Assembly (NCBI GenBank): GCA_040954595.2
Contig: CM082576.2
Coordinates: forward strand, 18,461,028-18,525,027
From: Balanoglossus misakiensis
Lineage: Eukaryota; Animalia; Hemichordata
Length of the DNA: 64,000 nucleotides
Direction: 5' to 3'
The notes under the pieces are model-generated. The model saw only the letters and a program-made list of their open reading frames with translations, was not told where the DNA came from and made no database searches. The position numbers and the translations under genes were made by a program. How positions within the stretch are numbered: the first letter of the stretch is position 1; each line of letters starts with the position of its first letter. Shown one piece after another: positions 882 through 57,413 of the stretch.

Positions 882-980
882 AATCTAATCAATGCCGCAG
901 TGAAGGGTGATGTTGCAAAGATTCAGTCGCTGATAGCTGATGGATATGATGTCAATGCAAGGGGTAAATACCCAGGGCAG
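882..980 (+). CDS. N-terminal capping ankyrin exon (NLINAAVKGDVAKIQSLIADGYDVNARGKYPGQ)
   Basis: 99 nt between tacag and gtaag. An in-frame ATG at 873 could alternatively be the start codon. Confidence 0.8.
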
Positions 981-3900
981 GTAAGTGTTCGTATTGACCA
1001 ATGTTTTATACAGAGTCATCGCTCAGGGCTAGCGTTTGATATTTAATTTTTCACATGCGGTGCATGCAGGAACTTAAAAAAATTGTGTGTAACTGTATTT
1101 CAATTACGTGCAACAAAATAACGATAGACAGCCTGGGTTTTTGGTAAGTAACAACTTTTAATAGAAATATCTTTTTAAAATAACGAATTTTGTTGAAATA
1201 AAATGGATTCTTGGTGCAAACAAGATATTCCTAATGTCAATTCTTCCACAAAGATAAACTTACAGACACGGAGAGGTCTGCTGCAAGCAGTATTTTTAGG
1301 GGTCAACTATGGTGTTTCAAATTCTCTGTGGCAAGAACTAATTCTCAACTGGGGTGTTTTTCAAGGTCCATCGCACTATTCTGTTTGCAAATACATCATT
1401 GCAGTTTGCCACGCCGCTTTCTATAGCACCCCTGATGCTGTTACTGTAGTAGCACTAGCTGAACCCCTGAAATGTTCCAGGACCACTTCAACTGTTCACA
1501 TGTAATATTTTATGCCAGCATTTGAGCAGAGACGTTTCAGAAACATTTCAATGGTTATGAGTGACTGGCTTTTCACACAACAGTAACACTGAATCAACTA
1601 GATATCTATGAACTTCCAAAATACCACACACTCCCAAAATGATATCACAACACCACATTTAGATTGTGCAAAAACAGACCTACACTAGCCCACAAATATA
1701 AATAACCTCAATTCAGCGCAGACTTTTTCATCAACAGTTCCAGTTTTACCTAGTGTGAACATGGTATCAGTCTACAGTTTGGTTCAATGTGGTTCAACCA
1801 CATACAGTAATACCTGTCGAAATGGAACATGCCGTATCTGGAAAACTGTCTATAATGAACACGTTTTCCTGTCCCCTTGACATAGAACCACGTGTTAAAA
1901 GAACCTTTACAAACCAGAAACGTCTGTAAACTGAACAATTTCTTCTGTCCCTTTGGATTAGACAGGTTTTACTGTACATGTGTTTTGGTCATAGAGAATT
2001 GTCACTCAACCTTAGAAAATACTATTATTATGATCTTTCAGATTGAAATCAATATCAGTCTATTACTGAAATAACACACCATCGTAATCGAAACCATTAT
2101 TACAATAGTGACTGAAGCTCATTGTGATGAAATTCCTAGAGTTTCCTCATCAAAAGATCAAGCAGTTGACTCACATTGCAAGTATCAGATTTGTGATGTC
2201 ATTTTTATTCCAACATTAAACGTCTTTATTCCAGAATGATTCCACAGCATTGCATGCAGCGTCCTTCAAAGGTAAATTGGATGCTGTCAGGATGTTGATT
2301 AGCCATGGTGCAGATGTCAATGCGAAGGATGAGGTACGTGAACTGACTTATCACTTTATTATGGATAATGTGGCCACACAATTGGATAATAAAAAAATGC
2401 CTTTGAAAAAGACCTAATTACAACACTCTTATTTTCATCCAAAATTACTTTGCATGATCCAAATTCAATGGGAAGAAACAAGCTAACCCTGAACAAGAAG
2501 AGGGAAAGGCCAAAAAGTATTACCCATACTGATTTAGTTTTACTAACCATGATACCCTTGGGATCCAGCCATAGGAAGGACAGTGGGACACATTGCACTC
2601 TAAATTTAACAATCTTTACAATTTAGCCAAAGATGTTGAACCATAGTGTATTTGACACATTTGTTCCGAATGAATAAATATGTTCCAGAAAGTAAATTTT
2701 GATGCATTTTTTTGTGTTTCACCAAAGTTAACACATTTTTATTTTTTTTCAAGCCATCTCTGAAATTTTGCTGGCAATCTTTTTTTAAATCTTCCACATC
2801 CCCTCCATCCTTAGTTAAGCTATGGAGTCTAAAACATCCAATGTTAAAAACTATATGACCAGTCAAAGCGTTTTCCTCGCTGTTAGAATCAATTGAGATT
2901 CTTCACCGTCATTCTTTGATCTGTATTCATTTTAACAGTCGGCAATTTTCATTTTGTGTGTAGAAGGACTGTGCATTATCCTTTCAAATCAGTCAGTATG
3001 CCATTCTTGCTTGTTTTTTGCAATATGGCTGATACTTTTGATATTTGTTTATTTATTTGTAGGTTTGTTTGTTTGTTTGTTTAAAGAAACCTCATATTAC
3101 ATTTCAATTTTTGTGACATTGTTCCCATGCTTCTCCTTCATTACTTACAGGATGGAGTCACCCCTTTGAATGATGCAGCAGGGTTTGGTGGTGAAGGCTG
3201 TGTCAGATTGTTATTGGAACACAAAGCTGATGTTACCATACAAACCCAGGTAAATACCAACTTGACTTCTGCAGGTTAATCTATCAGTATGGAATGATTT
3301 ATTCATTCATTTTTTGTTTGTTTGTTTGTTTGTATGTTTTTTGTTTAAGGAAAATGACACATTACGTTTAATTTTTGTGACATTGTTCTCATGCTCCTCC
3401 TTCATTACTTACAGTGGGGAGACACCCCTTTGCACTCTGCAGCAAGGAGGGATGTTGGTGAAGGCTGTGTCAGATTGTTATTGGAACAAAAAGCTGATGT
3501 AACCATACAAAACAAGGTAAATACCAACCTGACTTCTGCAGGTAAATTCTAAAAGTATGAGCTTTCTCAATAGTGCCATTTCCTCTGTAGTTTTCTTAGT
3601 AAATTGTGTCTGGGATACAATGTATATATTTGTCCATTGCCCTTTGAATCAAAACTACTCCCTCCATTGGTCAGGTGTTGTACAGATAGACTGATGACAG
3701 TCCATGCCAATCCTATCACAGAACGTATCAGATAGGGTGATTGTCTGTCGGCCTCCAGCATCTGCCAACTCCTGTCTGGTACCTAATACAATTCATCATA
3801 AGGAGGTGCCATATAATTTGTCACTGTCCTTTGAATCAAAACTACTTCCTCTCGGCCAGGTGTTGTCCAGACACAGGCAAGTATTGATTCATTATGGTGA

Positions 3901-6900
3901 TGTGATTGTCTCTCCTATATCTGAGACATTTGATCTCCACTGTGAGCAATTTGGAGTTATGAGAAAGGGGGATTGTCTCCAGCATCTGCCAAAAACTGTC
4001 TTGTTGAACATAAGGATGTTGTTGTTTATTGCATTGTTTATCGTCAATCTTTTGTGGTTTAAATAATAATCTCATTATTGGCACAGCGATTTCTGTCTGT
4101 CCTTCTGTAGACAGATTTTGTTCCACTCATATCTTGAGAGAAATTGAATCCAATGATATGAAATTTTGTATGTAGCATTGTTATGATAAGTTCTAGATCT
4201 GATAAGATTTTGGTGGGTATGGCTTATTAATAAATTCTCCTTTGCATATTTGTGTGTGGTCGAACGTTAATTCACTACATACACATGTAGAATAACATAA
4301 ACAGTGTCTTGTATCAAACATAATTAATGGAAAAAGGGAAGCGAGAAAGAGAGAGACTTTGTCCCTTTAATATTCAGGAATTTACTTTTCTTGTATACGT
4401 ACACTCTTATAATGATTGTAAATCTTGAGAATGGCTATCAAGTTGACAACCCTCGCACAAGTACATCATGTACATAAACAAAAATAGTCTGGTTTGTGGA
4501 GCCTCCTCCCTTTTTTACAGGAAGTACTTTCAAAATATGTTTATGCAATCAGTCCACACTCATGCTCAGTTTTGTGTCAGAATTATAGTCATAGCAACAT
4601 TTTGAGTAAGACTTTACCAGAAGAACTTGTTTTCATTGCGGCTCTGATTGGGGCCGTTTTAAAAAGGGGTTTGTTTGGCAACTTTTAGGACCGAAGGACG
4701 GATGCGCAGCCATGGTCACATCACACATGTCAAGTTGGGGACTTGCTGGGGGCAGGGGTGCTTGTTGACGGTGCCGAGAGGAGTCGGCCAGTTTTAGCTT
4801 GTACTTCAGGCAGAATAGCACAGTGCCAACCCAATTTACCTTTTATAAACTTTATAAAATATAATACATTTTAACATTAAATTGTTCAGTCGGATGATTT
4901 TTTTCATCATAATGAGCAACACAGCGGCAGCATTTGGATTGCTCTTTCTCTTGGAAATAGCTCAAGCTTATAAAACATGAGGTCTGTGCGGCTCCACTCC
5001 TCAGCTTCTCATCACTGTCTGTCACTTACCCAATCATTTCAAAGGGGGTGATCAAGATGGCCAGAACAGCAAGTTTTAACCAACCAGGTTCCAGAACCTG
5101 AGAGAAGGTGCTAAAAGCATGCAATAGATATATTGATGAGATAAACATTGGGAACAATAGGATGAAGGGAAGTGTGACTGGTCCAATCTGTTCTGTTTTA
5201 GTGTGGGGCACGGCTGGAATGGTTACACAAATGTCCTTGAAAGTTAGTGCTACTGTGGCTTCCAATGTTATCTCTTATGAAGAGTTTTGATAATTTTGTT
5301 TGTTCTTTATATTACATGAAAAGAATGACTGCATTCATTGCATTTAATTTTGTTTGCCACACATTCCCATTGGCCACAGTGTCCACTGAAGTCTTTCTTT
5401 GGTTATTAGACTTTTTGATGCAGTGCGATGGAGAAAGGGAATCAGTGTTAACTTTCTTCAGATGGTTTTTTTTGGTGAAATTCAAGTTTTTTTTATTTAA
5501 ACGCTATTTATACAAATAACGAGTGACACCATTGCACAACTCTACTTGATATTGTTGGACCACTCAGTAGAAATTTATTTTAATGATGATTGATTTATCC
5601 CTTGTCACATACAATTTCTCTGTTATTTCCCCTTTGATCGACATCGTTCAGTCTGCACAGCTTGGCTACTTTGTGCTGAGAACAGTCTGATGCCCTCCTA
5701 CAGGAAATAAACATAGTTTGGTTAGCTCAGATGTTTGATCTGTTTCCACATAAATCTCCACATATCTCAAATTTTTCATCATATTGGAGATGAGATGTGA
5801 TTATTCAAAATTCTTCTGACAATTCTACTAAATGTCACTGTAGTTGTTTGCTAAATCTTCTTCTATATTGTGCAGGTTGCAAAAATAAATTGGTCCCATT
5901 CACTAACATCACATCACTGTCAGTTTTTTGATAGAAAATCATAAATAAAGTTCAGTTTAAAATTGGTGTATTGGTTATCCGTAATGTTATCTGTTTTGCA
6001 AGTTGTCAAATTTGAGTTTGTTTGTGAATTATTTATAGTAACTTTTCTTTCTGTATCAACTGGCAGATATTTTGTCAGAATTCTTTTAGCTCGTTAAAAT
6101 GCATGTATAAAACTGAATTACACATCTTGTGTGTAGAGTCGATACTGTTTCTGTTCAAATGCCATTTACTGTTGGTTAATATTATCCACAAGGGAGTTTG
6201 CGATTATTTGTCGTTTGTGTGTTTGTTCGATCGTTCATTTTAACAAAATAACCTCATGTTACATTTCATTTTTCTTCTCATCATGCTCCTCCTTCATTAC
6301 TTACAGAATGGAGACACCCCTTTGCATTATGCAGTAAGAGGGTGTCGTGGTGAAGGCCTTGTCAGATTGTTATTGGAACACAAAGCTGATGTGACCATAC
6401 CAAACAAGGTAAATACCAACATGACGTCTGCAGGTTAATTCTGTCAATGCGGATATATTTATTCATTTTATTGTGTGTTTGTCTATTTGTTTGTTTGTTT
6501 GTTTGTTTGGTTAAGGAAATTTCACATTACATTTCAATTTTGTGACATTATTCTCATGCTCCTCCTTCATTACTTACAGACAGGAGACACCCCTTTGCAT
6601 TATGCAGCAAGGAGGGATGGTGGTGAAGGCCTTGTCAGATTGTTATTGGAACACAAAGCTGATGTGACCATACAAAACAAGGTAAATACCAACCTGACTT
6701 CTGCAGGTTTATTCTATTGATGCGGATATATTTATTCATTTATTTGTTTGTTTGTTTGTTTGTTTGTTTGTTTAAGGAAATTTCACATTAGATTTCAATT
6801 TTTGTAACATTATTCTCATGCTCCTCCTTCATTACTTACAGGATGGAGACACCCCTTTGCATGATGCAGCAAGGAGGGATGATGGTGAAGCCCTTGTCAG

Positions 6901-9900
6901 ATTGTTATTGGAACACAAAGCTGATGCTAACATACGAAACAAGGTAAATACCAACCTGACTTCTGCAGGTTTATTCTATTGATGCGGATATATTTATTCA
7001 TTTATTTGTTTGTTTGTTTGTTTGTTTAAGGAAATTTCACATTAGATTTCAATTTTTGTAACATTATTCTCATGCTCCTCCTTCATTACTTACAGGATGG
7101 AGACACCCTTTTGCATTATGCAGCAAGGTTTCGTGATGAAGGCCGTGTCAGATTGTTATTGGAACACAAAGCTGATGCTAACATACAAAACAAGGTAAAT
7201 ACCAACCTGACTTCTATAGGTTAATTCTGAAAGTATTGAAATATTTTTTTGTTTTTTTTTTGTTTAAGGAAATTTCACATTATATTTCAATTTTTGTGAC
7301 ATTATTCTCATGCTCCTCCTTCATTACTTACAGGATGGAGACACTCCTTTGCATTATGCAGTAAGGGATGGTGATGAAGGCCATGTCAGATTGTTATTGG
7401 AACACAAAGCTGATGTGACCATACAAAACAAGGTAAATACCAACCTGACTTCTGCAGGTTTATTCTATCAATGCGGATATATTTATTCATTTATTTGTTT
7501 GTTTGTTTGTTTATGGAAATTTCACATAATATTTCAATTTTTGTGACATTATTCTCATGCTCCTCCTTCATTACTTACAGGATGGAGACACTCCTTTGCA
7601 TTATGCAGCAAGGAGGGTTGGTGGCGAATGCCTTGTCAGATTGTTATTGGAACACAAAGCTGATGCTAACATACAAAACAAGGTAAATACCAACCTGACT
7701 TCAGCAGGTTTATTCTATCACTGCGGATATATTTATTCATTTATTTGTTTGTTTGTTTGTTTAAGGAAATTTCACATTAGATTTCAATTTTTGTGACATT
7801 ATTCTCATGCTCCTCCTTCATTACTTACAGGATGGAGACACTCCTTCGCATGATGCAGCAAGGAGGGATGATGGTGAAGCCCTTCTCAGATTGTTTTTGG
7901 AACACAAAGCTGATGCTAACATACGAAACAAGGTAAATACCAACCTGACTTCTGCAGGTTTATTCTATTGATGCGGATATATTTATTCATTTATTTGTTT
8001 GTTTGTTTGTTTAAGGAAATTTCACATAATATTTCAATTTTTGTGACATTATTCTCATGCTCCTCCTTCATTACTTACAGGGTGGAGACACTCCTTCGCA
8101 TGATGCAGCAAGGAGGGATGGTGGTGAAGGCCTTGTCAGATTGTTATTGGAACACAAAGCTGATGCTAACATACAAAACAAGGTAAATACCAACCTGACT
8201 TCAGCAGGTTTATTCTATCACTGCGGATATATTTATTCATTTATTTGTTTGTTTGTTTGTTTAAGGAAATTTCACATTAGATTTCAATTTTTGTGACATT
8301 ATTCTCATGCTCCTCCTTCATTACTTACAGGATGGAGACACTCCTTCGCATGATGCAGCAAGGAGGGATGATGGTGAAGCCCTTCTCAGATTGTTTTTGG
8401 AACACAAAGCTGATGCTAACATACGAAACAAGGTAAATACCAACCTGACTTCTGCAGGTTTATTCTATTGATGCGGATATATTTATTCATTTATTTGTTT
8501 GTTTGTTTGTTTAATGAAATTTCACATAATATTTCAATTTTTGTGACATTATTCTCATGCTCCTCCTTCATTACTTACAGGGTGGAGACACTCCTTCGCA
8601 TGATGCAGCAAGGAGGGATGGTGGTGAAGGCCTTGTCAGATTGTTATTGGAACACAAAGCTGATGCTAACATACAAAACAAGGTAAATACCAACCTGACT
8701 TCTGCAGGTTAATTCTGAAAGTATTGAAATATTTTTTTTTTTTTTGTTTAAGGAAATTTCACATTATATTTCAATTTTTGTGACATTATTCTTGTAATAT
8801 ATTGATATATTATTGTGGGCTCATTCCTAGAGAGATTAGACAGACGCAGGACATGTTCAACTGAACGACAGCCGTGCTGCTTCTTTATTGCTAACTGCGC
8901 ATGCTCACAAGCACAGCCTCGTACACAGCACTTTTACATAGCAGTTAATATACCAATACATAACACTGCTTCCCCCTTGAAATTTGGGTAGCTTACATGG
9001 TAACACAACTCAACAGAAAACACTTCACAGATCAAGTTTTACAACAGGCTTTCTCACCCTCTGAGACCTTCTAAGAGGTACGCTTTCTGGAGTAGTATTT
9101 GAAACCTCTGTACTAACTTCATCTGTTTTGAAACTCTCAATAGCAACATTTGAACTTTGTTTCACTGGTGAATGATCAATGCTTTCAGAAGGAATATTTC
9201 TCTTAGTGTGTACAGCATCATTCTCAATGAAATCAGGTACAACAACTTCTGGTTCATTAACATAATCAGGTACATTGTCATGTGCTCTAATCAAATGATC
9301 AGTATGAACAAATCTCATCGAATGACCAACTCTAACTACATAACGTCGTGGTCCACACACTTTCACAATAGTGCCTGGGATCCATTTCTCCAGCTTCGAA
9401 TTTGGTCTTTTGTTTCGTACACGAACTCTATCATACATCTGAAAGGTTCTTTCATTGACAGACATGTCATGATATTGCTTTTGTTTTTCTTGTTTCTTTT
9501 CAACCATTTGTGCAAGATTAGGTTTAACCAAACTCAATCTGCTTCGCAAAATTCTCTTTACCATCATCTCAGCTGGACTGACACCAGTAACACTATGTGG
9601 TGTTATCCTATATCTCAGTAAGAAATTGGCAAGTCGGTGTTTCATGGACATTCCCTTTATACCATGAAAAACTTGTTTCAACAATGCCTCCTTGACAATT
9701 CTCACTGATCTCTCAGCTGCCCCATTTGACTGTGGGTGGTAGGGCGGAACTAAAGTATGCTTTATACCATTCTTACTCATAAACTCTGCAAACTCTGCTG
9801 AAGTAAATTGTGGTCCATTATCTGACACAAGTTCTTCAGGCAGACCATGATTCGCAAAAATCAAACGCAACTCATCAATTGTGCGGTCACTTGTGGTCGA

Positions 9901-12900
9901 AGTCATATGTTTCGCCTCAATCCACTTTGAGTGACTGTCAACTAATATCAAAAAGTAATCAGTGCCTTTCTGACAGAAATCAATGTGTACACGTTGAAAT
10001 GGACGTGTGGGCCATTTCCATGGTATCAATGGAGCACTAGATGGAGCACTCCTCACACTCTGACAAACAGTGCAAACTTTCACCGTTTTCTCAATTTCCT
10101 CATCCATTCGAGGCCACCAGACACATGTACGCGCAATTGCTTTCATACTACACACACCAGGATGTTCCCAGTGTAATTCGCTCAACATTTTCTCTTGGAA
10201 AACTGCTGGAATTATAACCCTGGTTCCCCAAAGTACACAGCGTTGTTCACATGATAACTCATGCCGTCTACTGTGATATGGTTTCATTGACTCGTCAATA
10301 CAATGCTCAGGCCAACCAGTCATTACAAACTGATGGACCCGACTCAATACTGGATCAGTGCATGTTGCTTTGGCAATGTCGGTTGCTGTAATCGGAAAAT
10401 CATCATCCACAGCCCTTACTGTATATATCCTACTCTCACTAGCTACATTAGAAATCTCATGTGGTAAACGCGAAAGAGCATCACAATTTGCATGATCTTC
10501 TGATCTCCTATACTCTATATCATAGTCGTAGGCTGATAATATCAATGCCCATCTCTGCATGCGTGCTGCAGCTAAAGTAGGAATAGCTGATTTTGGACCT
10601 AAGAGTGCCAATAACGGTTTATGGTCAGTAATCAAAGTGAACTTACGACCGTATAGAAACTGGTGAAATTTCTTCACTCCAAATACAATAGACAATGCTT
10701 CACGTTCGATCTGCGCATAATTCTTTTCGCTGGCATTCAAGCTGCGCGATGCATATGCAATAGGTCTCTCTTGACCATTATCCATCACATGGCTAATCAC
10801 TGCACCTAGTCCATAACTAGACGCGTCACAAGCTAGTCTCAGTTCGCGCTTTGTATCATAATGCACTAATAAAGCATCACTGGACAGACCATTTTTACAC
10901 AGATCATACGCCTTCTGGCAATCAGATGTCCATTTCCACTTGACATCCTTTTTGAGCAACTTGTGCAATGGTGCTAGTATAGTAGCAAGATCTGGCAGAA
11001 ATGAATGGTAATATTGAACCATGCCTAGGAAAGATCTCAACTCGTGAACATTTCTGGGAATTGGTGCTTTCTTTATAGCATCAACTTTCTCATCAACTGG
11101 ATGTAGCCCGTCGGCATTAATCCTGAGACCAAGATAGACAACTTCAGATTTTAGGAATTTACATTTATCCAATTTCAGATGAATATTGTGTCGATCCAAT
11201 CTTTCTAACACTTCATCAAGGATATGGAGGTTTTCTTGCCAATTTTCTCCACCAAGAAGTATGTCATCTTGTTTACATACACATTTTTCAACTCCTTGCA
11301 AAATTTGATCCATTTTTGCCTGAAATATCTTGGGTGCGGATTTTACCCCATAAGGCAATTTGGTATATGAATACAACCCTTTATGAGTGTTAATTGTGAG
11401 GTACCCCTGACTCTCCTTATCAACACTAAGTTGTGCGTATGCATGTGACAAATCAAGTTTTGTGAAAACTTTGGACCCAGCTAATTCAGCATACAAGTCT
11501 TGAGTAGTGGGAAGTGGATACTGCTCATCCTCTACAGCTTGGTTTATGGTAACTTTGTAGTCACCACATATTCTCACAGACTTGTCGGCCTTTGGAACTA
11601 CTACAATAGGACTGGCCCAATCCGACCTCTCGGTTTTTACAATCACGCCGTTTTTCTCGAGTTTTTCCAACTCTTTTTCGACTGCATCTTTCAAAGCATA
11701 AGGAACTCTACGTGGCTTGATAAACACAGGCTTTGCATTATCGCGAACAGTGATGTGCGCTTCAAACCCTTTCATACCCTCATAGCTGTCATCAAACAAC
11801 TGTGCATGTTTTGACAGAAGTTTATCAAGTTGTTTCTTTGCATTGCTCTGATTCGAGAAACTCGTGGCAGATGAATTGGTTACACTGAATATCTCACCCC
11901 AATTCAACCTGATCTTATTGAGCCAATTTCTGCCCAATAAAATAGGTTTTCTTACAACATTAGCCACTACCATGGGCAATATGACCTTTTGACCATTGTA
12001 TTCTACTTTGCAGCTCATTTCACCACAAATATCGAGCATTTCACCTGTGTAGGTTTTCAGTTTTACCTTGGAGGGAAAAAGAGGTACTTTCCTGAACTTT
12101 TCAGTGTACTCACTCCTGCTCATAATCGAAAAATCAGCAGCAGTATCTACCTGCATGTCGCATGTGACATTGTTTACTGACATTTTCACTGTGTAACCTT
12201 TTGTACTATTTTTGGTGGGATTGGCTGTGTTGGTAGAATACAATGAAAATACACCCATATTATTTTCATCTCCGCTACTTTCTGTAGCATCTAACTCAGG
12301 CATATATACATTATGCACTTTTCCCTTTGTCTTGGTTGACTGGGAATTTACACCTTTGACACCAGATTTTTCATTTACACTGGCATTACTGTGACAAACA
12401 GATGCAATGTGACCAACTTTCTTACATTTGAAACATTTAGCATCCTTAAATTTACACATTTGTGGGTTGTGCTCACCCCTACATCTATAACATAGTTTTT
12501 GTCCACTAGTCTTTGCCTGGGGTTTTCTGTAACCCTTCGAAAGTTTATTGACGACACCACTCTTGTCGCTGACACTGCTACTAGTACTGCTGGCAGGTCG
12601 AAACTCCTTTGCGTTCTTCTCCGCCATCTCCATGGACGTTGCTATCTGACAAGCACGGTCGAAGGTAAGGCCCTCTGTGTTCAACAGCTTGTTTTGGATC
12701 CTTACGTCATCCAGACCACAGACAAATCTGTCTCTCAAAGCTCGATTCAGAAAATCGCCATAGTTGCAGTGTATGGAAAGTTTCTTCAATGACACAATAT
12801 AGTCACTGACTGACTCACCAGGCTTCTGGTTACGAGTGCCAAAATGAAAACTTTCCGCTATCTCTAACGGTGCTGGGTTGTAGTGTCCCTCAAGTGCTTG

Positions 12901-15900
12901 GACGATTGCATTCAAAGGCTTGTCTTTAGGTTTGGTGGGCGCCAACAAATTACTGAGCGTAGAATACGCTTCCGGTCCGATTTTACTGAGAAAAATCGCT
13001 CGTTTTCTGCCTTGGACAACTGCATTCGCCTCAGCGTGTACTTCACCTGGAACTTCCACGATGTTGTTCGCCTCAAAGAACATTTCCATCCGCTCTACAT
13101 ACGAACTGAATGTCTCTCGATCTGGCGAAAACTCACCGACACTTCCAACAAACCCAGTTGCTGCCATTGCTAGTGTGACAAAGTTTGATTACCGCTCGTC
13201 CTGGTCACGTAGGAACTTTCACTTCGTAGTTCTCTGACAAAAGTCTAATGTTCTACTCTGGAATTCTCTCGTGCTACTCAGCGCACGTAGGAAGCCACCA
13301 TCCTCGTCGCCAAAATGTAATATATTGATATATTATTGTGGGCTCATTCCTAGAGAGATTAGACAGACGCAGGACATGTTCAACTGAACGACAGCCGTGC
13401 TGCTTCTTTATTGCTAACTGCGCATGCTCACAAGCACAGCCTCGTACACAGCACTTTTACATAGCAGTTAATATACCAATACATAACAATTCTCATGCTC
13501 CTCCTTTATTACTTACAGGATGGAGACACTCCTTTGCATTATGCAGCAAGGGATGGTGATGAAGGCCATGTCAGATTGTTATTGGAACACAAAGCTGATG
13601 TTTACATACAAAACAAGGTAAATACCAACCTGACTGCTGCAGGTTTATTCTATCAGTGCGGATATATTTATTCATTTATTTGTTTGTTTGTTCGTTTACG
13701 GAAATTTCACATTATATTTCAATTTTTGTGACATTATTCTCATGCTCCTCCTTCAGTACTTACAGGATGGAAACACTCCTTTGCATTATGCAGCAAGGAG
13801 GGTTGGCAAAGGCCTTGTCAGATTGTTATTGGAACACAAAGCTGATGCTAACATACAAAACAAGGTAAATACCAACCTGACTTCAGCAGGTTTATTCTAT
13901 CAATGCGGATATATTTATTCATTCATTTGTATGTTTGTTTGTTTAAGGAAATTTCACATTAGATTTCAACTTTTGTGACATTATTCTCATGCTCCTCCTT
14001 CATTACTTACAGGATGGAGACACTCCTTCGCATGATGCAGCAAGGAGGGATGGTGGTGAAGGCCTTGTCAGATTGTTATTGGAACACAAAGCTGATGCTA
14101 ACATACAAAACAAGATAAATACCAACCTGACTTCAGCAGGTTTATTCTATCAATGCGGATATATTTATTCATTTATTTGTTTGTTTGTTTGTTTAAGGAA
14201 ATTTCACATTAGATTTCAATTTTTGTGACATTATTCTCATGCTCCTCCTTCATTACTTACAGGATGGAGACACTCCTTCGCATGATGCAGCAAGGAGGGA
14301 TGGTGGTGAAGGCCTTGTCAGATTGTTATTGGAACACAAAGCTGATGCTAACATACAAAACAAGGTAAATACCAACCTGACTTCTGCAGGTTAATTCTGA
14401 AAGTATTGAAATATTTTTTTGTTTTTTTTTTGTTTAAGGAAATTTCACATTATATTTCAATTTTTGTGACATTATTCTCATGCTCCTCGTTTATTACTTA
14501 CAGGATGGAGACACTCCTTTGCATTATGCAGCAAGGAGGGTTGGTGGTGAAGGCCTTGTCAGATTGTTATTGGAACACAAAGCTGATGTGACAATACAAA
14601 ACAAGGTAAATACCAACCTGACTTCTGCAGGTTTATTCTATCAATGCGGATATATTTATTCATTTATTTGTTTGTTTGTTTGTTTATGGAAATTTCACAT
14701 TAGATTTCAATTTTTGTGACATTATTCTCATGCTCCTCCTTCATTACTTACAGGATGGAGACACTCCTTTGCATTATGCAACAAGGAGGGTTGGTGGTGA
14801 ATGCCTTGTCAGATTGTTATTGGAACACAAAGCTGATGCTAACATACAAAACAAGGTAAATACCAACCTGACTTCAGCAGGTTTATTCTATCACTGCGGA
14901 TATATTTATTCATTTATTTGTTTGTTTGTTTGTTTGTTTAATGAAATTTCACATTAGATTTCAATTTTTGTGACATTATTCTCATGCTCCTCCTTCATTA
15001 CTTACAGGATGGAGACACTCCTTCGCATGATGCAGCAAGGAGGGATGGTGGTGAAGGCCTTGTCAGATTGTTATTGGAACACAAAGCTGATGCTAACATA
15101 CAAAACAAGGTAAATACCAACCTGACTTCAGCAGGTTTATTCTATCAATGCGGATATATTTATTCATTTATTTGTTTGTTTGTTTGTTTAAGGAAATTTC
15201 ACATTAGATTTCAATTTTTGAGACATTATTCTCATGCTCCTCCTTCATTACTTACAGGATGGAGACACTCCTTCGCATGATGCAGCAAGGAGGGATGGTG
15301 GTGAAGGCCTTGTCAGATTGTTATTGGAACACAAAGCTGATGTGACCATACAAAACAAGGTAAATACCAACCTGACTTCTGCAGGTTAATTCTGAAAGTA
15401 TTGAAAGATTTTTTTGTTGTTGTTTTTTTGTTTAAGGAAATTTCACATTACATTTCAATTTTGTGACATTATTCTCATGCTCCTCCTTCATTACTTACAG
15501 ACAGGAGACACCCCTTTGCATGATGCAGCAAGGAGGGATGATGGTGAAGGCCTTGTCAGATTGTTATTGGAACACAAAGCTGATGCTAACATACAAAACA
15601 AGGTAAATACCAACCTGACTTCTGCAGGTTTATTCTATCAATGCGGATATATTTATTCATTTATTTGTTTGTTTGTTTGTTTTTTTGTTTGTTTGTTTGT
15701 TTGTTTGTTTGTTTGTATAAGAAAACACATTTCATTTCAATTTTTGTGACATTGTTCTCATGCTCTTCCTTCATGACTTACAGAAAGGAGACCCCTTTGC
15801 ATTTTGCAGCATATGTCATATAATTTTGTCATTGTCCTTTGAATCAAAACTGCTCACTCTGTCGGGTCAGGTGTTATACAGGCAGGTGTGGAAACGATTT

Positions 15901-18900
15901 GCATTCCTTTCTTTCTTTCTTTGTTAATCAATCAATTGTTGTTCTATTCATTGATCATCACCCCCCTGTATCATGAACATCACAAGGCAATGCATTGAAT
16001 TCAGCTCTTCCAGCTAGTGGCCGCACTTGCTTGATTTCCTGCGTGTGTCTCTGGGGATGAAAAGAATGCATATGCGTCTTTTCCTAATTTGCATATTTTC
16101 AATGGGTGTTCCAACGTGAGTAACCGTTCATTGACTTCCAGCTCGCATCGAATACACGTTAGGGACTGTTTTTACGGCTGGGGGGGGGCAAGTTTGGGTC
16201 ATCGATTTTCAAAATCAGGCCGACCCCCCCTTCACCCTGGACCAAAAAATGATGACCCCCCCTTTGACAGACCCAAAATATGATGACCCCCCCCCCCCCC
16301 CCCCCGCTGAAAACATTCGCCGTGCTGATCCTATGTACACTGTATGCAATAAAGGGAATGAGGCTCCTCACACCTCAATTATAAATTTCTTAAAGTAATT
16401 GAAGTATATATAATAGTATATCGTTGCAATAAAAAATATATGAACAAAATAAAATGACAAGTCAATACAATAGAAAATTTAAGAAAATTTTGTAAAATAC
16501 GGTGCTCAAAGTTGCATTCGAATGAACTCTAAAGCAAATTAACTCAATGTTAGGCAGGACAAATTTTAATTTTGCCACTCCACTCAAAGTAAACATCGGG
16601 GGTAGGGTGGGTAGAAGTCTGCCGTGGTACACTAGACAAACCAGCGAATAAATGATATGTGGCGAAGAATGGAGGGGGAGGGGTGTGCGAGGGGGTGTCC
16701 CCCTCCCACATAAGAAAATTTTGTAAAATATGTAGCTCAAAGTTGCATTTTTATGAACTCAAGAGCAAATTATCTCAGTGTTTGGGAGGACCTAAAATTT
16801 GACTTATAGGTGTGCGTGCCTCAATCATCTGATGAATGTATTCATCTATGAATGTGATCCATTTTCAGAACGTAGTGACTCCTTGTCAAGAGGCAGGAAG
16901 GAAGGCTGGGCGGGGTGCAGGCACCGATATTGCAAGAGCCTTTGTGGAATATCATTTTGACAATGAGAAAGTATATCAGGCAAGTATTGAGTTAGATTTA
17001 AAAGGGCAAGGTTACTCACTTTTGATAAAACAGTGAAATTGTGTCAGTTACCGACCACCTCTATATAGTGGCCACTTTGTTACAGTCCCTGTGCAGTTAA
17101 CATGGGCAATTATTGACTTGTATATACAGGCCACCTGTCTATTAAGGCCAATTTAGGAAAGTCACTCTGACTGGCCAATTTGGACTGTGAGATTTGGCTG
17201 TATTTCAGTTATTTACCAATTGGCTCTTTCTGTTGTTCTAAAAGATGCTCATTGACCAGTTTTATAAAGCTTACTGGCAACTCACACCTGACACATGGAT
17301 ATTTAAATCCATTTATTTTTTACCAAAATTATTTAACAATAGTGTCCATAATATGCATGGTGTGGTATAATTGTCATAATCCTGTACTTTACAGCTAGTT
17401 CATTTAAGCAATAAAACACCCCCAGCCATAGTATACCACTCGATTTTGACCAGTTCACGACATATACGCACTCGCTATCGCTCCTGCGTATATGTCGTGA
17501 ACTGGTCAAAATCGAGTGCGTATATGTCGTGAACTGGTCAAAATCGAGTGGTATACCATGGCTGGGGGTGTTTTATTGCTATTATATTATGCCAGTATAT
17601 TGAAACTTTGCATAAAACATTTTAAAAAGGCATTTTCTTTGACTATGCTATATGACTGTGGTATATGGCTAATATATCACAGTCACGTGTCGTGTCTCGA
17701 CCAATAAAATAGCGTGATTTACACCATCAATATACTGGTATAATATAATCAATCATATATGTTCTGTTTTCATCAATGAAAATACAGGCAGTTATAAACT
17801 CAGTGTATGACAGAGATGACAAAAGAGACCTGATCAACCATCATAAGGTACGTCATAATGTTGATAATAAATGGCTATGAAAACATATCATATCACTAGT
17901 GTATTTGAATTTATCTTCTATATTTATAACATGGAAAACATAAAACCAGACTGTCATATAAATTTTTAACTACATACTTATTCTATTGTGCCAGCTAGGA
18001 AGGCATTAAAGGGACATTACCTATAACTTTTGGCTTTATTTCCAGATTTTTTTCCTTTTGTGTACAAAATGCAATTTCATGTTCTTCTCCAAACTGCATG
18101 CTAATATGCCCAGTACTCAACTTGTGTATATTGCCTGTCTCTGTAACAACCATTGTTATTGTTGACTCATGAATTCTAGTCCGGACTTCAATTCAAATTT
18201 TGCAAAATAACAATGTTGAATATACACAAAGAGTACACAACTATCGAGGTGTGCGTCACAAAGAGATGACAAACTTATGCAAATAGAAGTTATGGAAAAA
18301 ATATGTTAAATTTGGCAGCTCATGAGGCTTTAACTATGCATTATTTCTATAGTGTTAATGATAGCTTCCACATCATAAGCACATCATAATAGTGTAGTTA
18401 ACAATGTAAATTATATTTTTTGATACTAGCGTTTTTATCAATATCTTTTCTGAAGCAAAATGTCATGTGACTTCTTTGAAGACATGGTGTTTAATTGAAA
18501 GGCATGTAAATTGAGTGTAAAAATTCCCAATATATATAACACATAACATATCTGTTCAAATTCTGACAGGTGTTTTCCCGCCAAAAAGAATTCACAGCAC
18601 TCATGAGACAACCTGGTGTCAAACGTAATACTACAAAGATTGTGTTAGCTGGATACGGTGCGAATGGCAAAACTACGCTCAAAGAATCATTGCAGCGGGT
18701 GTGTAGAAATCTTTGATTATAAATGCCAATTATTGCTGTTTTTGAGGAGTGAAGGATTTGTGCAAATATTAAAGTTTTCATGAAGACTACATTTCAGTGG
18801 AAATCAGGGTACATATTTTGTTGACCAACCAATTCTCCAAATATTTTATATTATTACAATATGATTGGCATTAATCAAGCTTGCTGATTGGCCCGAGTCG

Positions 18901-21900
18901 CGGTTTATATCCTCAACGAGAAGACCTGAACCCTGAACAGTGAATAACTAAAAAATAACCGAAATGGGACACATAGAACAGAACGCCTCGCCTCGCTCAG
19001 TGATTATTTCCCGCCAAATATGCTAAGTTTCACCTGGGAGGTCTTATATCCGGAATCAAATACTCTCGCTTGCCGTTTATAAGTTTACAACCTCTAAATT
19101 GTGAGAAAATCATCACTTATGTTCATATATTACAATGCAGAACTTTGTGCAAGCAAAATTGACTCGACGGTCAGAAGAGAAAGCACCTTTACCAGGGAAC
19201 ATGCAGTACACACCAACACCCGCCATAGATGTAGCCACATTATCCATACCCAAGATTGGCAAGTTCAGTGTGTGGGACTTTGCAGGACAAACAGAATACT
19301 ATGTCACACATAATATGTTCCTAAGAGTCGAGAATGCAGTGGTTTTATTGGTCTTCAAAATGGCTGAGGACAAGCAGGATGTAGTTTGGACACCAAGAAA
19401 ACTTATGCAACAGCAGAGACAAGAGGTGGGTTGTTGTTTTTTTGTTACTGATGATAAGTGATATTAATATTTTGGGCAATTATGGAATAAAGGTAAAGAT
19501 GAAACTCAGAAAGGGCACAGTGCATATATTACAATATTTTTTTTATTACTAAGCAGTGCATCAGTGAATTAGGTGGTGCAATATTGTGAATGAAATTAAA
19601 GTAAAGATGAATGGCACAGTATATATATTTGTGAAACATTTATCTCTTTTTGTTTTTATCCAGATTTAGGGACTGATTGAATATAATATGATTGATGACT
19701 TTATATTCTTCTTCATGTCTTTCTTTAATAGGTGACATCATGGCTTGCATTCCTTAAGGCAATCATACCACAAGATATGGATGAGGGTGGGAGTAAACCA
19801 AAAGTGATATTGATTGGAAGCAAGGCTGATTTGTTGAAAGCTGAACACAAGAAAGAAGGTATGTTCAGTACATGTTTAGATAAAAGGTGACAAGAGCGAG
19901 GGTATTCACACAATTGGGAGCCTGGTGTGGGAGTACACTCAATCTGATTAAAACCAGATGTAGTGTTGGGCGCTGTCTTTACCTTTGCTGATTCTTGGCT
20001 GTTCTGTTCGAAAGGGACACCCATACTACATCTGAACCTATGCAAAAGGAGATCTCATTACTATTCAACATTTTACCTATTCAGATAGTGTGATTGATGT
20101 AGAATTTCACCGGATGCTTTCAAAAAATACAAAACAGCACCAAAGTGGCCTCTTCTGTGTATATGTCCATACTTTGTAAATAAAAATATATCAAGAGATC
20201 ATTACTTTTTTCTTGATAGCTAAATTGGTGATGAGGGAAATACTCCAGACAGCTCAGAAGACCTTTGGCAAATACCTGAATATTCTTGATGAGACATTCA
20301 TACTGAATTGTCACAACTCGCAGCATAATGATATGCACAGATTGCGTGAATGTCTACGAAGTGCAAAGGTATGGTTTTATAGATATTCTGCAATGTGTGA
20401 CTGGATTGAACATGTTAATTCATTAGGGCCATATTTGACAAAGGCATGCTTTACATCACCTTAATACTCTCATGTAATGCATAGAGTCCAAGAAAGCCAA
20501 CTATCAGATAGTAATAACTGAACTCTTATCAGTGGGAAATAAGTCAAGGTTGTATACTTTTGACTTACCGGGTATCAGAACTGTCTAAAAGGGCGTTCTC
20601 ACTGGCACGTTTACACTGGTGCTACATCGGTGTAGATTTGACACCGACGGAAAAAAACAAGTGAGAACGCTTTACACCGGTGTTGGGCCGGTGTTAATTT
20701 GCGACAGCGATGGGTGGTGGGTCAGGGCCAGTGCTGGGCCAGCGCTCCGACGCAAATAATCAGTGAGAACGCAAAGATAAACAAACACCGTTCAAAAGCG
20801 CCACCCTGCAGTGCCTTTTGGGTATGTTTATTAGGTATAGCCCATTGTCTTTGGTCAGTTTCCATTGTTAAGTCAATCACACTGGATGCGAGTGGTTTTC
20901 AAACCATTCGCAGTTTGCCAGGTCTGCAACACTTCAGTCTGCTACCAACTTTCAGAAGGTTCTCTCGATCACCAAAAAGCCGAGGCATTTTCCATTTATG
21001 GATTAACATTCATTTACTTCTAAACATTATCAAAACTGTCACAAAGTCGTCTAGAACGTATATGCAGGTATATAAACTGCAACATGTTGCTGTAATGTCC
21101 TCGACATCCTCAATTTTGTTAGTTGCCGTGTTGCTAAACATGGCCATTTAGACAGTGTTTATTTCAAAACAGTGGCCAAAAGTTTAGTGTGTGGACGCAA
21201 GGAGATTCTGTGGGCTAATCCCCTGTGTTTGCAGAGAGTAAACACTGGCATAACACCGGTGTCCAAACTTTTAGTGAGAACAAGACTTTAAATAATGGGC
21301 TGTGTCTGTAAAGGGTGAATATCACTGTTGCCAGTATTGTTCGAGTTGCTTTTCTGAATGTTCATTTCACCAAACAACAGTATTATGGGGGTCATCGTTA
21401 AACCCCGGTGCGGGGTATAAAAGACCCCCCAAATCAGTGGCGAATCTTAATGCCGTTTGACTGACAACAGACAACACCAACGATCTTGGCTCTATGAAAA
21501 TCGGCCCAAACAGGTCCAAGCATAAAGAATTACACCACACAACGACAGTAGTTGGCTTTATAAACACACACAACATAAAGTTATCGACGAAAAAGTACAC
21601 GAGCTTATGAAACAACGATGATTTTGGGAGAAATCTGGTTTCAGTGCTTTTCAGAAGCGTCCCTGGGAAACAATAACCACGCCATTCAAACAGTTGTCAA
21701 TCGCGTGGAAGTGTGAAGTGTTCAATTATTTTCTGTGTACATGAGAGCAATTACACAGTCATTATGCACGACGACCACTCCCAAATAAACAACTATACAA
21801 ACACACGTTAATCCGAACCCCAGGACTTTCCGCACCGTGGTTTAAGACGTTTTTGAAACATCTCAGATGAAATACTGGCGTAAATTATCATGTGTGAATG

Positions 21901-24900
21901 GTTTAAGTGGTCCTGAAACGTCTCAGATTTGAGACGGCTTTGGTCAGACCTGAGCCAGTTTAAGGATTAACACCTCTCCGCAACCCATTGTTTGTGTGTG
22001 TGTACACAAGGCGACTTAAAGGATTAATGCTCTGTGTTTACTATTGGCAAATAGTGTCTATGAAATGTTTTGAATTTTACCCTGTCTGGACATGAACCTG
22101 GTATATGTCGCTGTGTTAATGTTACAGAGAGAAGAATACATACCAAAGTTGTGTGCTAAGATACTTGATGGAAGAAGCAAATGGATTGTGAGCAGTTTCC
22201 CGGTCATCAAATGGAAAACATATATAGAAAGAGTGAAAGAGTTGGATCGTTTCATTGATGAAGAGTTTCTAAAGAAAGCTACGCACTACCTTGGGGAGGT
22301 AAGTTTATTACAGAAATCGTTGCTGAAGACATTACCCCACTTGATCAGTAGGTTAAGAAATCCATGGAGGATACTGTAAAACAGGTTATTTCGCGAGCAA
22401 TAAATTTTCATGAAATATGCGAGAGCCCCCAAAAATGTGAAAATACAAAAGTCGCATAAAATGTTTTTTTTTTCTTAGATAACAATGCAGTTAGTGAAAT
22501 ACGAGAAAGCCAAAATTAATCCATGCATAACAGTTGCTTCTTTTGATATCGCGAAAATTTCCTGTCGCGAAAAGAACCTGTTTTACAGTATGAAGTCATA
22601 CTACAAGAAAATGTTCTCGCAAAGTTTGGAGAAAGTACAGTACTGCAATTATGTTTATCACAGAACAATTACTGATGAAACCTTTCCAAAGACCAACAGG
22701 AGTTCTGAAAGTTTTCTAGAAATTCTTTAAAACCTATCAATGCCAGGGTTCATCAAAAATAGGGGGCATCATTGACTTAAACATATAAACCATGGGATGT
22801 GAAAAACAAGTACTAATACAGAAACCAGAAATAACGCTGGAAAATTGGTTGACAGGGGGTGTGCTTGTGTCAACCGTTAAGTGCACTCTTTGTTTGATCA
22901 TGATTAGTGTCATACAAATTTAACCCTTAATAATAATAATAATAATAATACTTTATTTCAGACTTTAAAAAAAAGTCCATATACCCAAAAGAGAGAAGAA
23001 AAAAAAACACTAATGAAAATACTCTGGAAAATCTGAAACTGAGACACACACACACAAAAAAAAAACTCTGCAAAATTACATGATATACAATTGCTTTCGC
23101 CAATGTTTGAAAAATATGCTGTCAGTCGCTCTATCTGATGAACAGATCGCATCAAGTAAAACATTAGAAGAATTTTCGAGTCTACACTTAAAACTGTACA
23201 TATTGCGTCTAAAAACTTCACCAAGTGACAATACATGGTTTGTAGCAAACATACCCGATGCACTGCAAAATGGCGGAAGACCGAGAAGTCTTCTCCAAAC
23301 ATTATTGTACATAGTTTTAAATTTTTTCATCGGTTTAACTTTAAAGGATGCCCACAAACTGCAACAGTAAATATTACTACAATATGCCAAAAATACAACT
23401 TTCTTCACATCTTGACTACAATGTTGAAAATGTCTCAATAGCATGTTTGCTCTAACGCAAAATGCTCTTCTCTGTCGTTCAATATCTTCATTATCACAAC
23501 CATCACAAGATGGCCCAGATAGGTGTGTTCAGGTACAAACTTCAAAGTGATGTCATTAAGTTTAACCGAAGGAATTCTTTGAACGCTGATATTCTTCCCA
23601 TTAAAAAGCATGCACACAGTTTTACTAGAATTATAAATGATATCATAATCCTTGCCATAAATTTCACAAATTCTAAGAAGACGGCGTAGACCCTTAACAC
23701 TTGGACTGAGTAGAGTCATGTCGTCAGCGTAACCTGAAGTGTTAGCGCTGACACCACACATGGTACAGCCAACTTTGGCTTTACAGAGTGCATTGATAAG
23801 ATCATCAATGTAGACATTAAAAAGATAGGGAGAGAGTACTCCCCCTTGTCTTACACCGTTAGAAACAGAAAACAACTCTGAGGTTTCATTACCCCACAAC
23901 ACAGTAAACAATTGATTTCTGTACCAGTAATATAAAATTCGAACAGCATACAAGGGAACATTCCTGTCGATGAGCTTGTTAACCAGTTTAAAGTGATTAA
24001 CTCTGTCAAAAGCTTTTGAAGCATCCAGAAAACAAGTAAACACTGGTCCTCCATTGCTGGTGTAGTAGCTAATGATTTCTTTAAATGCAAATAAACACAG
24101 GTCAGTTGAATGTTCTCGCTTGAAACCAAATTGTAAATAATGAGAGGTAAGAAACTCCTCACAACGAGAAAGTAAAATATGCTCAAAAACTTAAGAGAAA
24201 ACAGTTGCTAGTGCTATCGGCCGGTAGTTACTGGCATCACTACAAAGCTTAGTTTTATCCTTAATAATTGGAACTAAAATAACTTTGATAGCCTCAGTTG
24301 GCAGGTAACCATGAACAATCATAGCATTAATACAACAAGTCAAAATGGGTAAAATAGAGGAGTCTGAGAATTTGAGGTGCTCAGCTGAAATATTGTCAAT
24401 GCCAGCTGTCTTGTCGTCAGGTAACTTATGTATAGCAGAAATTACTTCGTCTTCAGAAACATACATATCAGAAGAAAAGTTAACATACTTCATTTTCTCC
24501 TCGATGTCATTTTTACCAGTCTGAGCCTGGACAGAATTCAAAATATCACTGAAATGCTTGTGCCACATAATTGCAATTTCACTCTCACCAGTCGCTCCAC
24601 CTACAGTGTCAGAAAGTGGCGTTTTTCTGCTAGTTTGCTTTCTGACTTCCTTCCAGAAGTCGTTCTGTTTGTGGCAGCATAAATTGTCAGCCATCTTGTC
24701 AGCCCTATTTTGATTCTCAATCTTTTTACAAGCACGTAAAGCATACTTAAAACGAGCTCTGAAAGATTTCTTGGTTTCAAAAAGCGGGCCTTGTTTAGGT
24801 TTACCCCCATTAACCCATAATAAAAACATGGAACGGGCATAGTCGTGACTTTCTTTTACAAAATCGTTCCAGCCAGGTACAACATGAACTTTCTGGTGAA

Positions 24901-27900
24901 ACTTACGCCTAATGGTATATTTTGCAGCACAATTCAATGCGTCCACAATACTACTATAACAAGTATCAATTGCCTGTAAATGCGAAGGGTCTGTACAGTT
25001 CACATTAGTGCAGAATAACTGTTCGGATAAATTAATCTTATCAATCTTGGCTTTGGTACAAGGGTGTAGGCGGATATATTCTGCTGTGACAATTTTTTCC
25101 AATCAACTCGAAAATTACATTGCTTGAAGGAACTACTGCTGAATCTTTCATCGGCAGAAGTGTTGAAATGAACCTCTATTGAAACAGGAATATGGTCGGA
25201 GTCAACAACATTGCAAAGGCTCGAAATTGAAAGAACATTGCTATGAGAAACTTCAGTGGTAACACAGTGGTCAATCCATGAAGTACTGCCATGAGCATCG
25301 CTAATCTAAGTAAACGTACCAGAATCCCTGCCTAGCAGCTCAACATCAGAAACGATGTAACCAAATTGCTCACAATGCTCCATCAACTCACGGCCAAAGC
25401 CTGTATCAGTAGTTACATCAGCATTCCAGTCACCAATAAAAAAGACATTCCCAGTGTTAATATCAGAAACAATGGAATTGATTTTCGCCAAGTACTCACT
25501 GAACACTTCAAAATTATCATTAGTATTGGTGGGCAAATAACAGTTTACAATAACAAGTTTGTCAGTATCATTTTCTAAAACTAAACCAAGCAAGCGACTA
25601 TCAGCAAACTCAACAATACTGGCAAGTTTGCCAAGCGATCTACGCCAAAGAATTGCAACCCCCCCCCCCCCCGTACGGTCTACCAATACGGAGTTCAGAC
25701 GAATCAAAAGCAGATACTCCGAATGACATAAAATCCAGATGTATGTCATGTAAAATTGATAGCTCTTCCTTAGCAAGCCAGTGTTCTTGTAAAAGACAAA
25801 TATCATGGGTTTCACACAATTCATACACAGAATGAAAGCTTGATTTCACAGAGCGACAGTTAAATGACACAATCCGTAAACTATTTTTGCGTTTTGTCAT
25901 GGCGTCTGAGATTTATAGTATTTTCTTACAAGAGTATCCTGAGGCGTATTTACAGGATCAAGGGCAACTCTAATGTCTACATCAGATAATTCAACCATAA
26001 AAGAAGCATACATATCATACTTTGTTTTCAGTTTTGTACAGTTCACACCTACATCAAATTTGTCCGCAGCATAGCGCTCAACATTTTCACATGTTGTTGC
26101 TGGATTCAGCCGGGACACAAAAAGTGTACATACACGCCGCGGTCTTGCGCCTTGAAGGCCAGCTGTACTCAGCGCAGTTCCAATCACAGGCTGGGTTCTC
26201 TTAAGAGGGATCTGGGGGTGAAAGGCTTGACAGAGCCTTTTGCTGAGGATCTAGACAGGGATTCAAGACTGAGAAAAAAAACCAGAAAAGGCCCTCTGCT
26301 ATAAACATGTTTTTGTGGTCCATGTGTGTCACTAGTAGACCATGAGCCAGTAGGGGTTTACCTCCCCCCCCCCCCCGGGGGAATTTTTGAGACAATGTTT
26401 TTCTGAAAGCCTATCATATACTGAGTAAAATTCACTTTGTTTGCCATCTGGGCACCGGGGCGTTTTCGAGTTATTGGCTTCTAAATTATATTGGGTAACG
26501 TATGTAGAAAAGCCTAAAAGTGCATATAAATTGACGTAGGGGGGTAAATTAGTCTTGTAAAATACTGTCTCTCTGAATGTATACCTAGAACAACAGGGAA
26601 GTGTTTGGTATCAAAAGAAAGCTTAATAAACAAGCTTTCCATTAATTACAAAATTAAAGTGATATGACAAATCATGACATCATAGTGACGTCATAAGTCA
26701 AAATACCCTTACGAAAATGGTGTTCTGTTCACCTATAATTTGTATAAATGTGAGGTTTTGCAAAACACGTCTCTGAGCAATTGTACTGATGAAAACTGTC
26801 ATGTGTTTGGTATCAACAGAAAGCTGATTGAGTAAAGTATCTAATTATTGCAAAATATTGATATAATAATCAATTACGTCATCATTACGTCATACTTCCA
26901 AGTACCCTAACCAATTAGTGACTATGATGACAAGTTATTACCCTAGGAGATAGGTGCCTTTAAATAAAAAAATTGGTAAGGAAGGTTTGTGAAGTCCATT
27001 CTATGTAAAAAATGGTGCTGATTCCAAAAAAAGGCAGTCTTATTGACCCCACCCAAGACAAAATTGCCATTTTGGCACTTTTTAACCCAAAAAAGGTCAT
27101 TTTTAGAAAACACTAAAAACACACTGTTTTCGTCACATTCGAAGATCTGATGACATATGATATGCCTATTCTATGTAAAATTTGGTTGATATTACGAAAA
27201 AAGCAGTCTAACTGACCCCACCCAAGACAAAATTGCCATTTTGGCACTTTTTAACCCAAAAAAGGTCATTTTTAGAAAACACTAAAAACACACTGTTTTC
27301 GTCACATTCGAAGATCTGATGACATATGATATGCCTATTCTATGTAAAATTTGGTTGATATTACGAAAAAAGCAGTCTGACTGACCCCAAACGAGACAGA
27401 ATTGCCTTTTTGACCATTTTTTGCCCAAAAACGTCATTTTTAGACAAAACTTAAAACACACTCTTCTCTTCATATTGATTGATTTGATGATATATGGAAA
27501 GTCAATTCTATGTGTAAATTGGTGACTATAAAACATAAAGCAGTCTTTTTGACCCCAATCAATACAAAAATGCCATTTTTGGCCACATTTTTGAGGTCAA
27601 ATAAGGTCATTTTTACAAAAAAACTAAAAACAAACTGTTTTCTTCATATTCAGAGATCATGTGATATAATATAATTTCTGATTTTGTATTCAGAACGAAG
27701 AGGATACATGTTAACAATCTATCCGGAGCTGGTATAGATGTACTTAAAAAAATTATACCATGTATAACCGACTTATAGTATACAGTGTGAATACATGGAT
27801 CGTCTCGTTTTATTGTTGAGTTCCATTTTAGGCTAAATGTGCCTTTCAATATCATCAATTCAACTGATATCATATGGTATGACATTTTAAATATGCAAAT

Positions 27901-57096: not shown

Positions 57097-57413
57097 TTTC
57101 CTCAACTTCTGACACCATGTGTTGTATTGGAACTCCGTACGCCATGAAGTCTAGTCAACAGAGTGCCAAAACGAGGCAACTCACTTTATTACCATAAGTC
57201 AACATAGAGGGCAGTATTACAGATAGTAATGTACAAGGCATTCAAAGTAACATACATTACACGCCCCTTTTTTACAAATGGGTGACCGGTAATACAAGTG
57301 TGAACAATTCAGGATGTTTGACAATGTGAAGACATTTTTCTTATAACTCGGGAAAGCACCAAAAAAGTTCAGAACAATAATACAAAGAAGTGGTATCTCA
57401 AATACAATGCAAG

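Follow-up and report, generated by a model that had tools for sequence, protein, structure and literature searches.

Does the hemichordate Balanoglossus misakiensis encode an intracellular receptor whose ankyrin sensor is rebuilt by recombination? The question is raised by a 64,000-nucleotide (nt) stretch of its genome (GCA_040954595.2, contig CM082576.2, positions 18,461,028 to 18,525,027 of the forward strand; hereafter the window, with positions counted from its first nucleotide), in which single-repeat ankyrin exons form a tandem array upstream of exons for Roc, COR and death domains. An earlier note on this DNA had read the locus as a candidate diversifying immune receptor. From sequence comparisons we consider it fairly probable that the gene is a broken allele or paralogue of a family of ankyrin-ROCO sensors diversified in the germ line. 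The window holds symmetric phase-0 units, mosaics among them, block duplications and a frameshift, and an in-frame form is present in the same sample.

Positions 3151-15602 hold the array of 21 exons. All are 99 or 102 nt long, in phase 0 and free of stops, and every one encodes a single ankyrin repeat, as seen by translation for all 21 and by Pfam Ank matches for both of the cassettes scanned (2/21; E 8e-10 and 2e-5). A conserved acceptor and donor flank the cassette exons, with the exception of the donor of cassette 15. The earlier note's exon description is confirmed by these data, and its spacing of about 240-270 bp holds for 18 of the 20 gaps (238-273 bp) but not for the remaining two (2,892 and 4,938 bp), one of which is a 2.8-kb intron and the other the insertion of a long terminal repeat (LTR) retroelement. 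Its nearly identical introns were found for most pairs but not for every one, the mutual identity of the 18 short introns being 83-100%. Cassette units including their flanks are 77-100% identical (mean 91%), and the mean nearest-sister identity among the 21 repeats is 94%, compared with at least 85% over 100 residues in fungal NLRs of high internal conservation. Tandem Repeats Finder detected arrays at 6490-8792 and 13489-15682 with a period of 250 and scores above 3000, far beyond chance. There are 17 distinct sequences among the 21 exons, and the two indels within exons leave the codon frame unchanged, each comprising whole codons. Many animal ankyrin genes presumably have a single repeat in each 99-nt exon, for which a literature search gave no source, and this layout alone is not claimed as new. 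The ankyrin region contains the following features.

882-980, plus strand: older exon, the first visible one (99 nt, phase 0), with an N-terminal capping ankyrin-like repeat, found by tblastn with residues 10-40 of the relative P0001 (58% identity); no Pfam match alone
2235-2333, plus strand: divergent older ankyrin exon (99 nt, phase 0; Pfam Ank E 3e-10)
3151-3516, plus strand: cassettes 1-2, the most diverged units (exons 3151-3249 and 3415-3516)
6307-8682, plus strand: cassettes 3-12, period about 250 bp
8793-13488, minus strand: LTR retroelement of 4.7 kb inside intron 12, with 173-bp LTRs and a 5-bp target duplication
13519-15602, plus strand: cassettes 13-21
14013-14114, plus strand: cassette 15, with donor AT instead of GT
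15784-15815, plus strand: truncated 22nd cassette, an acceptor and about 10 codons followed by intron-2-like sequence

The window begins 881 bp before the first exon, and the 5′ end of the gene is not visible in it; P0001 starts about 10 residues before its first repeat, and the start-codon exon in relatives is about 10 codons long. Candidates for such an exon at positions 170 and 440 (region 1-860 examined) were too weak and were not accepted. No reverse-strand spare ankyrin exons were seen in the window.

Downstream of the array, eight exons between 16869 and 31871, with AG/GT borders and one GC donor, splice into a Roc-COR-death sequence, as the earlier note had stated. They align to Ptychodera flava models annotated as 'DAPK1-like' at 40-60% identity. 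Differences of 43 and 92 residues between P. flava isoforms correspond to window exon sizes of 129 nt and 127+149 nt, which supports the exon model.

16869-17847, plus strand: two linker exons (16869-16979, with the GC donor, and 17788-17847)
18570-20368, plus strand: Roc GTPase exons (18570-18698, 19141-19425, 19732-19858 and 20220-20368), from tblastn and Pfam Roc
22128-22298, plus strand: first COR-A exon, from tblastn with P0001 and P0006
30617-31871, plus strand: last exon, with the end of COR-A, COR-B and the death domain, from tblastn, Pfam and a structural model; frameshifted
31461-31817, plus strand: death-domain fold, out of frame in the window copy (model, structural matches, Pfam Death E 0.022)

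The GC donor (16979-16981) ends the exon after the array, an exon that homology supports weakly. The P-loop GYGANGKTT is encoded in exon 18570-18698, and Pfam Roc passes the cut-off on 19141-19425 (E 6e-8). In Pfam, COR-A (E 0.002) and COR-B (E 8e-6) stay below the cut-off; the structural model agrees with known RocCOR structures (3dpu, E 9e-6). The last 146 residues were modelled with a predicted local distance difference test score (pLDDT) of 82, and a structural search of 48,161 chains returned death domains as all of its top 12 matches (MyD88: Z 11.7, root-mean-square deviation 2.4, 97 residues aligned). Foldseek also ranked death domains first, yet none at E <0.001. The PDB sequence search was dominated by ankyrin matches. 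The gene encodes a Roco protein with a DAPK-like domain order and is neither an NLR nor a leucine-rich repeat (LRR)-ROCO gene.

The cassettes carry a clear record of exchange. By the four-gamete test, 160 of 528 informative site pairs are incompatible, and the minimum number of recombination events (Rm) is 11, that is, at least 11 exchange points within a unit of 244 columns. Incompatibility grows with the distance between sites, and none of 5000 permutations was as extreme. Among units 4-21 divergence is independent of position (rho −0.004); the nearest units of unit 7 are 13 and 17, that of unit 8 is 18 and that of unit 4 is 21. Larger blocks are duplicated as well: 7683-8182 and 8183-8682 show one difference in 500 bases, and the segment 7195-7700 is repeated at 14365-14873 with 97% identity. 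Because the window repeats are 94% alike among themselves but at most 67% identical to foreign repeats, the homogenisation is local. From what is established about these processes, the mosaic and block pattern likely fits unequal crossover plus gene conversion, and the mosaic units with their Rm of 11 support the reshuffling that the earlier note had proposed for the sensor.

That note had overlooked the damage that this otherwise genuine array and its gene have suffered: a frameshift, a lost donor, the truncated 22nd cassette, Leu-to-Ser changes and a retroelement. The spliced frame stops at 30980-30982 owing to a frameshift near 30947, and beyond the stop a different frame encodes COR-B and the death domain. 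We compared this site with contigs from two of three sequencing runs, about a quarter of each, with patchy cover and with contig depth not equal to copy number. In run X2, one contig (depth 1031) is identical to the window across the frameshift, so the lesion is real in the DNA; a pure assembly error was rejected on the same observation. A second contig (depth 3200) is five bases longer at this site, which would restore the frame. An in-frame allele or close paralogue is therefore present in the same single sample. Cassette 15, with its GT donor lost, is likely skipped or mis-spliced. The element in intron 12 has identical LTRs and a single 1,387-codon frame with protease, reverse transcriptase (RT), RNase H and integrase, the order of which we take to indicate the Ty3/gypsy type; since the LTRs are identical and the frame is intact, the insertion would be very recent.

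The closest relatives of the gene by sequence are an expanded DAPK1-like family in P. flava, whose models made up 15 of the 21 matches in one search and all ten in another. The P. flava total is 17 models (isoform pairs counted once), six of them on one 23-Mb scaffold, and models on small contigs may include alleles. Glandiceps, Saccoglossus and Branchiostoma contain further members. A search with a sequence profile gave 851 representatives at E 1e-10; 172 proteins were retrieved, and removal of seven isoform duplicates or fragments left 165, known as protein models. Ankyrin repeats are present in 80 of the 165 (range 1-26), with at least three in 59. Homogenised arrays, taken as those in which three or more repeats have a close sister, were found in five of these 59 at 85% identity and in nine at 75%, including proteins of Amphiura (26 repeats), P. 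flava (19), Glandiceps (16), Saccoglossus (16), B. floridae (9) and B. belcheri (7). Each array has a separate consensus, indicating independent homogenisation. These data support a paralogous family with arrays of variable repeat number, of the kind that the earlier note had suggested looking for. In a tree the window belongs to a supported group of 16 sequences (13 from P. flava, one from Glandiceps, one long-branch Amphiura sequence and the window itself) and has no sister; this placement and an identity of 45-60% point to an acorn-worm gene. A scan of metagenome contigs gave 139 pattern matches, with no relative among them.

The C-terminal effector varies across the family. The window gene has a death fold, and relatives carry CARD, CARD-kinase-caspase, a GT4 glycosyltransferase, or CARD plus death. 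Pfam did not detect a kinase in the five closest relatives scanned (P0001, P0003, P0006, P0012 and P0026). In one Branchiostoma belcheri protein (P0044), ankyrin repeats and Roc-COR are followed at the C-terminus by a GT4 'conflict' glycosyltransferase, which makes it an animal counterpart of the bacterial LRR-Roc-COR-GT4 design. Two Branchiostoma lanceolatum models that are 90% identical (P0028 and P0030) are two adjacent ankyrin repeats apart, a difference that may reflect an allelic copy-number change, splicing or modelling.

Variation between the cassettes was used next to look for selection. Pairwise non-synonymous and synonymous differences (pN and pS) are 0.098 and 0.064, and the overall ratio is 1.3-1.5; the 46 derived alleles comprise 38 non-synonymous and eight synonymous changes. 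One 27-nt stretch carries only two of the 46 (p 0.002). The framework helix (helix 2, columns 20-28) has two derived residues, and the hairpin and the end of helix 1 vary. Several observations weigh against a diversified sensor at this locus. The window pN/pS is not different from neutrality (p 0.59), and enrichment of changes on the binding face, at positions presumably equivalent to those of designed ankyrins, has p 0.086 at the six strict positions and reaches p 0.01 only with an inserted column added. The absence of stops from the cassettes was rejected as a sign of selection (chance expectation 0.16). Core position 8 is changed from Leu to Ser in eight of the 21 cassettes versus none of 295 family repeats, position 19 is His or Arg in three cassettes versus again none of 295, and the window copy cannot make the death domain. 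Among the relatives with at least three repeats, 50 of 59 are without such homogenisation. In favour of a diversified sensor, the binding-face positions 2, 3, 5, 10, 13, 14 and 33 of 11 related proteins differ at 0.34 across 56 recent sister pairs, against 0.13 for ten control positions that vary as freely when old repeats are compared (p 0.0007; enriched in 10 of the 11 proteins). This protein-level test used automatic gene models and non-independent pairs, and position 10 was added to it after first results had been seen. The window on its own is no proof of diversifying selection.

Much of this would also be expected if the paralogue were dispensable or dying and its array had expanded unchecked like a minisatellite, with slippage and conversion multiplying an exon-intron unit without selection after its first duplication, in a family of non-immune scaffolds. 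The frameshift, the dead donor, the truncated unit, the serines in eight of 21 cassettes, the retroelement and the neutral pN/pS are all in keeping with it, as are the many short P. flava models in which the ankyrin region is missing. We nevertheless regard this explanation as unlikely: the framework helix is kept across units (p 0.002), the in-frame form occurs in the sample, and full-length models in several other species are homogenised too, with an enriched binding face.

We then compared the gene with known systems. In brown-algal ROCO genes each LRR is encoded by an exon of its own, some exons are inactivated, and shuffling, positive selection and alternative splicing all occur (PMC3341825, PMC11378527). 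Like these LRR-ROCO genes (Zambounis et al., 2012; Teng et al., 2024), the window gene is built around Roc-COR, encodes each repeat in a separate exon, contains inactivated exons, has many paralogues and pseudogenes, and varies on the binding face. It differs from them in having ankyrin repeats instead of LRRs, exons in phase 0 instead of phase 2, a head-to-tail series of homogenised introns and a C-terminal death domain, and in that no spare exons were seen on the reverse strand. Positive selection and alternative splicing are established in the algal genes, whereas the window pN/pS does not differ significantly from 1 (p 0.59). Fungal NLRs show homogenised ankyrin repeats, repeat-number polymorphism and concave-face selection, and such repeats make up 0.8% in metazoa (PMC4986451). 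With the fungal NLRs that carry ANK, TPR or WD repeats (Dyrka et al., 2014) the gene shares intragenic repeats more than 85% identical, recombination between repeats, variable concave-face residues and exchangeable effector domains. Unlike in those proteins, a Roc-COR GTPase replaces NACHT/NB-ARC, the sensor is N-terminal and the effector C-terminal, and each repeat has its own exon; repeat-number polymorphism is a feature of the fungal NLRs, and the window array is known from one sample. The order ankyrin-Roc-COR-death is that of DAPK1 (Roco group 3; PMC6337361) and of the 'DAPK1-like' RefSeq models of Ptychodera, Saccoglossus, Glandiceps and Branchiostoma. Unlike DAPK1, the gene belongs to a multi-copy family, and has 21 recent repeats, and no kinase was detected in its five closest relatives scanned. 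Bacterial LRR-Roc-COR AP-GTPase proteins have been proposed as counter-invader systems (Kaur et al., 2021; PMC8195603), and in the accessible part of that paper animal Roc-COR fusions appear merely as listed architectures. Common to both groups are fast-evolving N-terminal repeats, Roc-COR and C-terminal effectors that vary and include caspase and GT4; the bacterial proteins differ in being prokaryotic, with an LRR sensor and no exons, and their function is predicted too. The earlier note's analogy with brown-algal ROCO and fungal NLR repeat arrays is supported by these shared features, and if the inference holds, the ankyrin-ROCO gene would work like the repeat shuffling of brown-algal ROCO genes and fungal NLRs.

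The brown-algal parallel bears on a further explanation, namely that the array is a splicing or somatic cassette system in which Dscam-like exon subsets are used per cell or the array itself is rearranged. Every subset of units would be in frame, given that they share phase 0 and their splice signals; donor-dead and damaged units would be tolerable when skipped; and LRR exons of brown-algal ROCO genes are alternatively spliced (PMC11378527). Amphioxus isoforms in two of nine related-model pairs differ by exactly one (33 amino acids) or three (99 amino acids) repeats in the same register, but these isoforms are automatic models and the seven other pairs lack a clean whole-repeat difference. Two P. 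flava isoform pairs differ in exons of the Roc region and not in ankyrin exons, the short introns and identical consensus splice sites suggest constitutive inclusion, and a DNA-level explanation covers all the variation seen. We therefore judge such a system improbable as the main source of variation. That the array length was inflated by assembly error, which the earlier note had raised, is hardly credible, since 17 of 21 exons differ, the same diagnostic changes recur in mosaic units that lie far apart, and one intron contains a retroelement flanked by a clean target duplication, even though one pair of adjacent 500-bp blocks is one base apart and the cassette number comes from the assembly and not from reads.

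Other elements were noted in the window. The intron between the COR exons contains a LINE-like element on the minus strand (22950-25912; long interspersed nuclear element) with endonuclease and RT pieces in several frames, and a 4-kb element (26330-30360) that looks like a foldback transposon: its two arms, each about 1.3 kb long and 93.5% identical, are inverted relative to each other, and tandem repeats of 169 bp lie inside it. A 700-bp element occurs twice in opposite orientation (20590-21287 and 48546-49243; 96% identical), and minus-strand frames of 166, 283 and 224 codons at 41260-44767 look like pieces of a DNA transposon. Two tandem LTR retroelement copies at 52583-61796 share their middle LTR, are 99.9% identical over 4.7 kb and have a 1,423-codon frame each; they represent a tandem insertion or an assembly duplicate.

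Returning to the reading that we favour, a broken member of a germ-line-diversified sensor family, we propose that the array was amplified and scrambled by unequal crossover and gene conversion among near-identical exon-plus-intron units. The homogenised introns would supply the homology for recombination, gain or loss of a unit would preserve the frame, and selection may favour new binding-face residues. In an intact copy, a ligand bound on the ankyrin arc would switch Roc-COR and cluster the death domain, which would then recruit an adaptor; members of the family likely act as intracellular sensors that trigger cell-death or immune signalling. Diversification would most likely be germ-line, between alleles and paralogues and with gene birth and death, and exon skipping occasional and secondary. 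A bolder proposal, which we hold only tentatively, is that invertebrate deuterostomes possess a so far undescribed NLR-like family with Roc-COR in place of NACHT. Its ankyrin sensors would consist of recombining one-repeat cassettes, its effectors (death, CARD, caspase or glycosyltransferase) would be interchangeable, and diversity would arise by crossover between alleles and, inside a single animal, by cassette skipping or somatic rearrangement.

Searches of the literature, whose reach mostly excluded subscription papers, found no paper whose title or abstract deals with exon arrays in animal ankyrin-ROCO genes, and the accessible parts of PMC9334734, PMC11310086 and PMC11463336 do not describe the family. 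In prior knowledge, Roc-COR sensors with repeat shuffling belong to brown algae and, as a prediction, to bacteria, and homogenised ankyrin sensors to fungal NLRs. If our interpretation is true, the family would be a candidate class of variable intracellular receptors beside NLRs in those invertebrates that are most closely related to vertebrates, currently hidden under the label 'DAPK1-like', and it would link DAPK1/LRRK-type proteins to non-self sensing.

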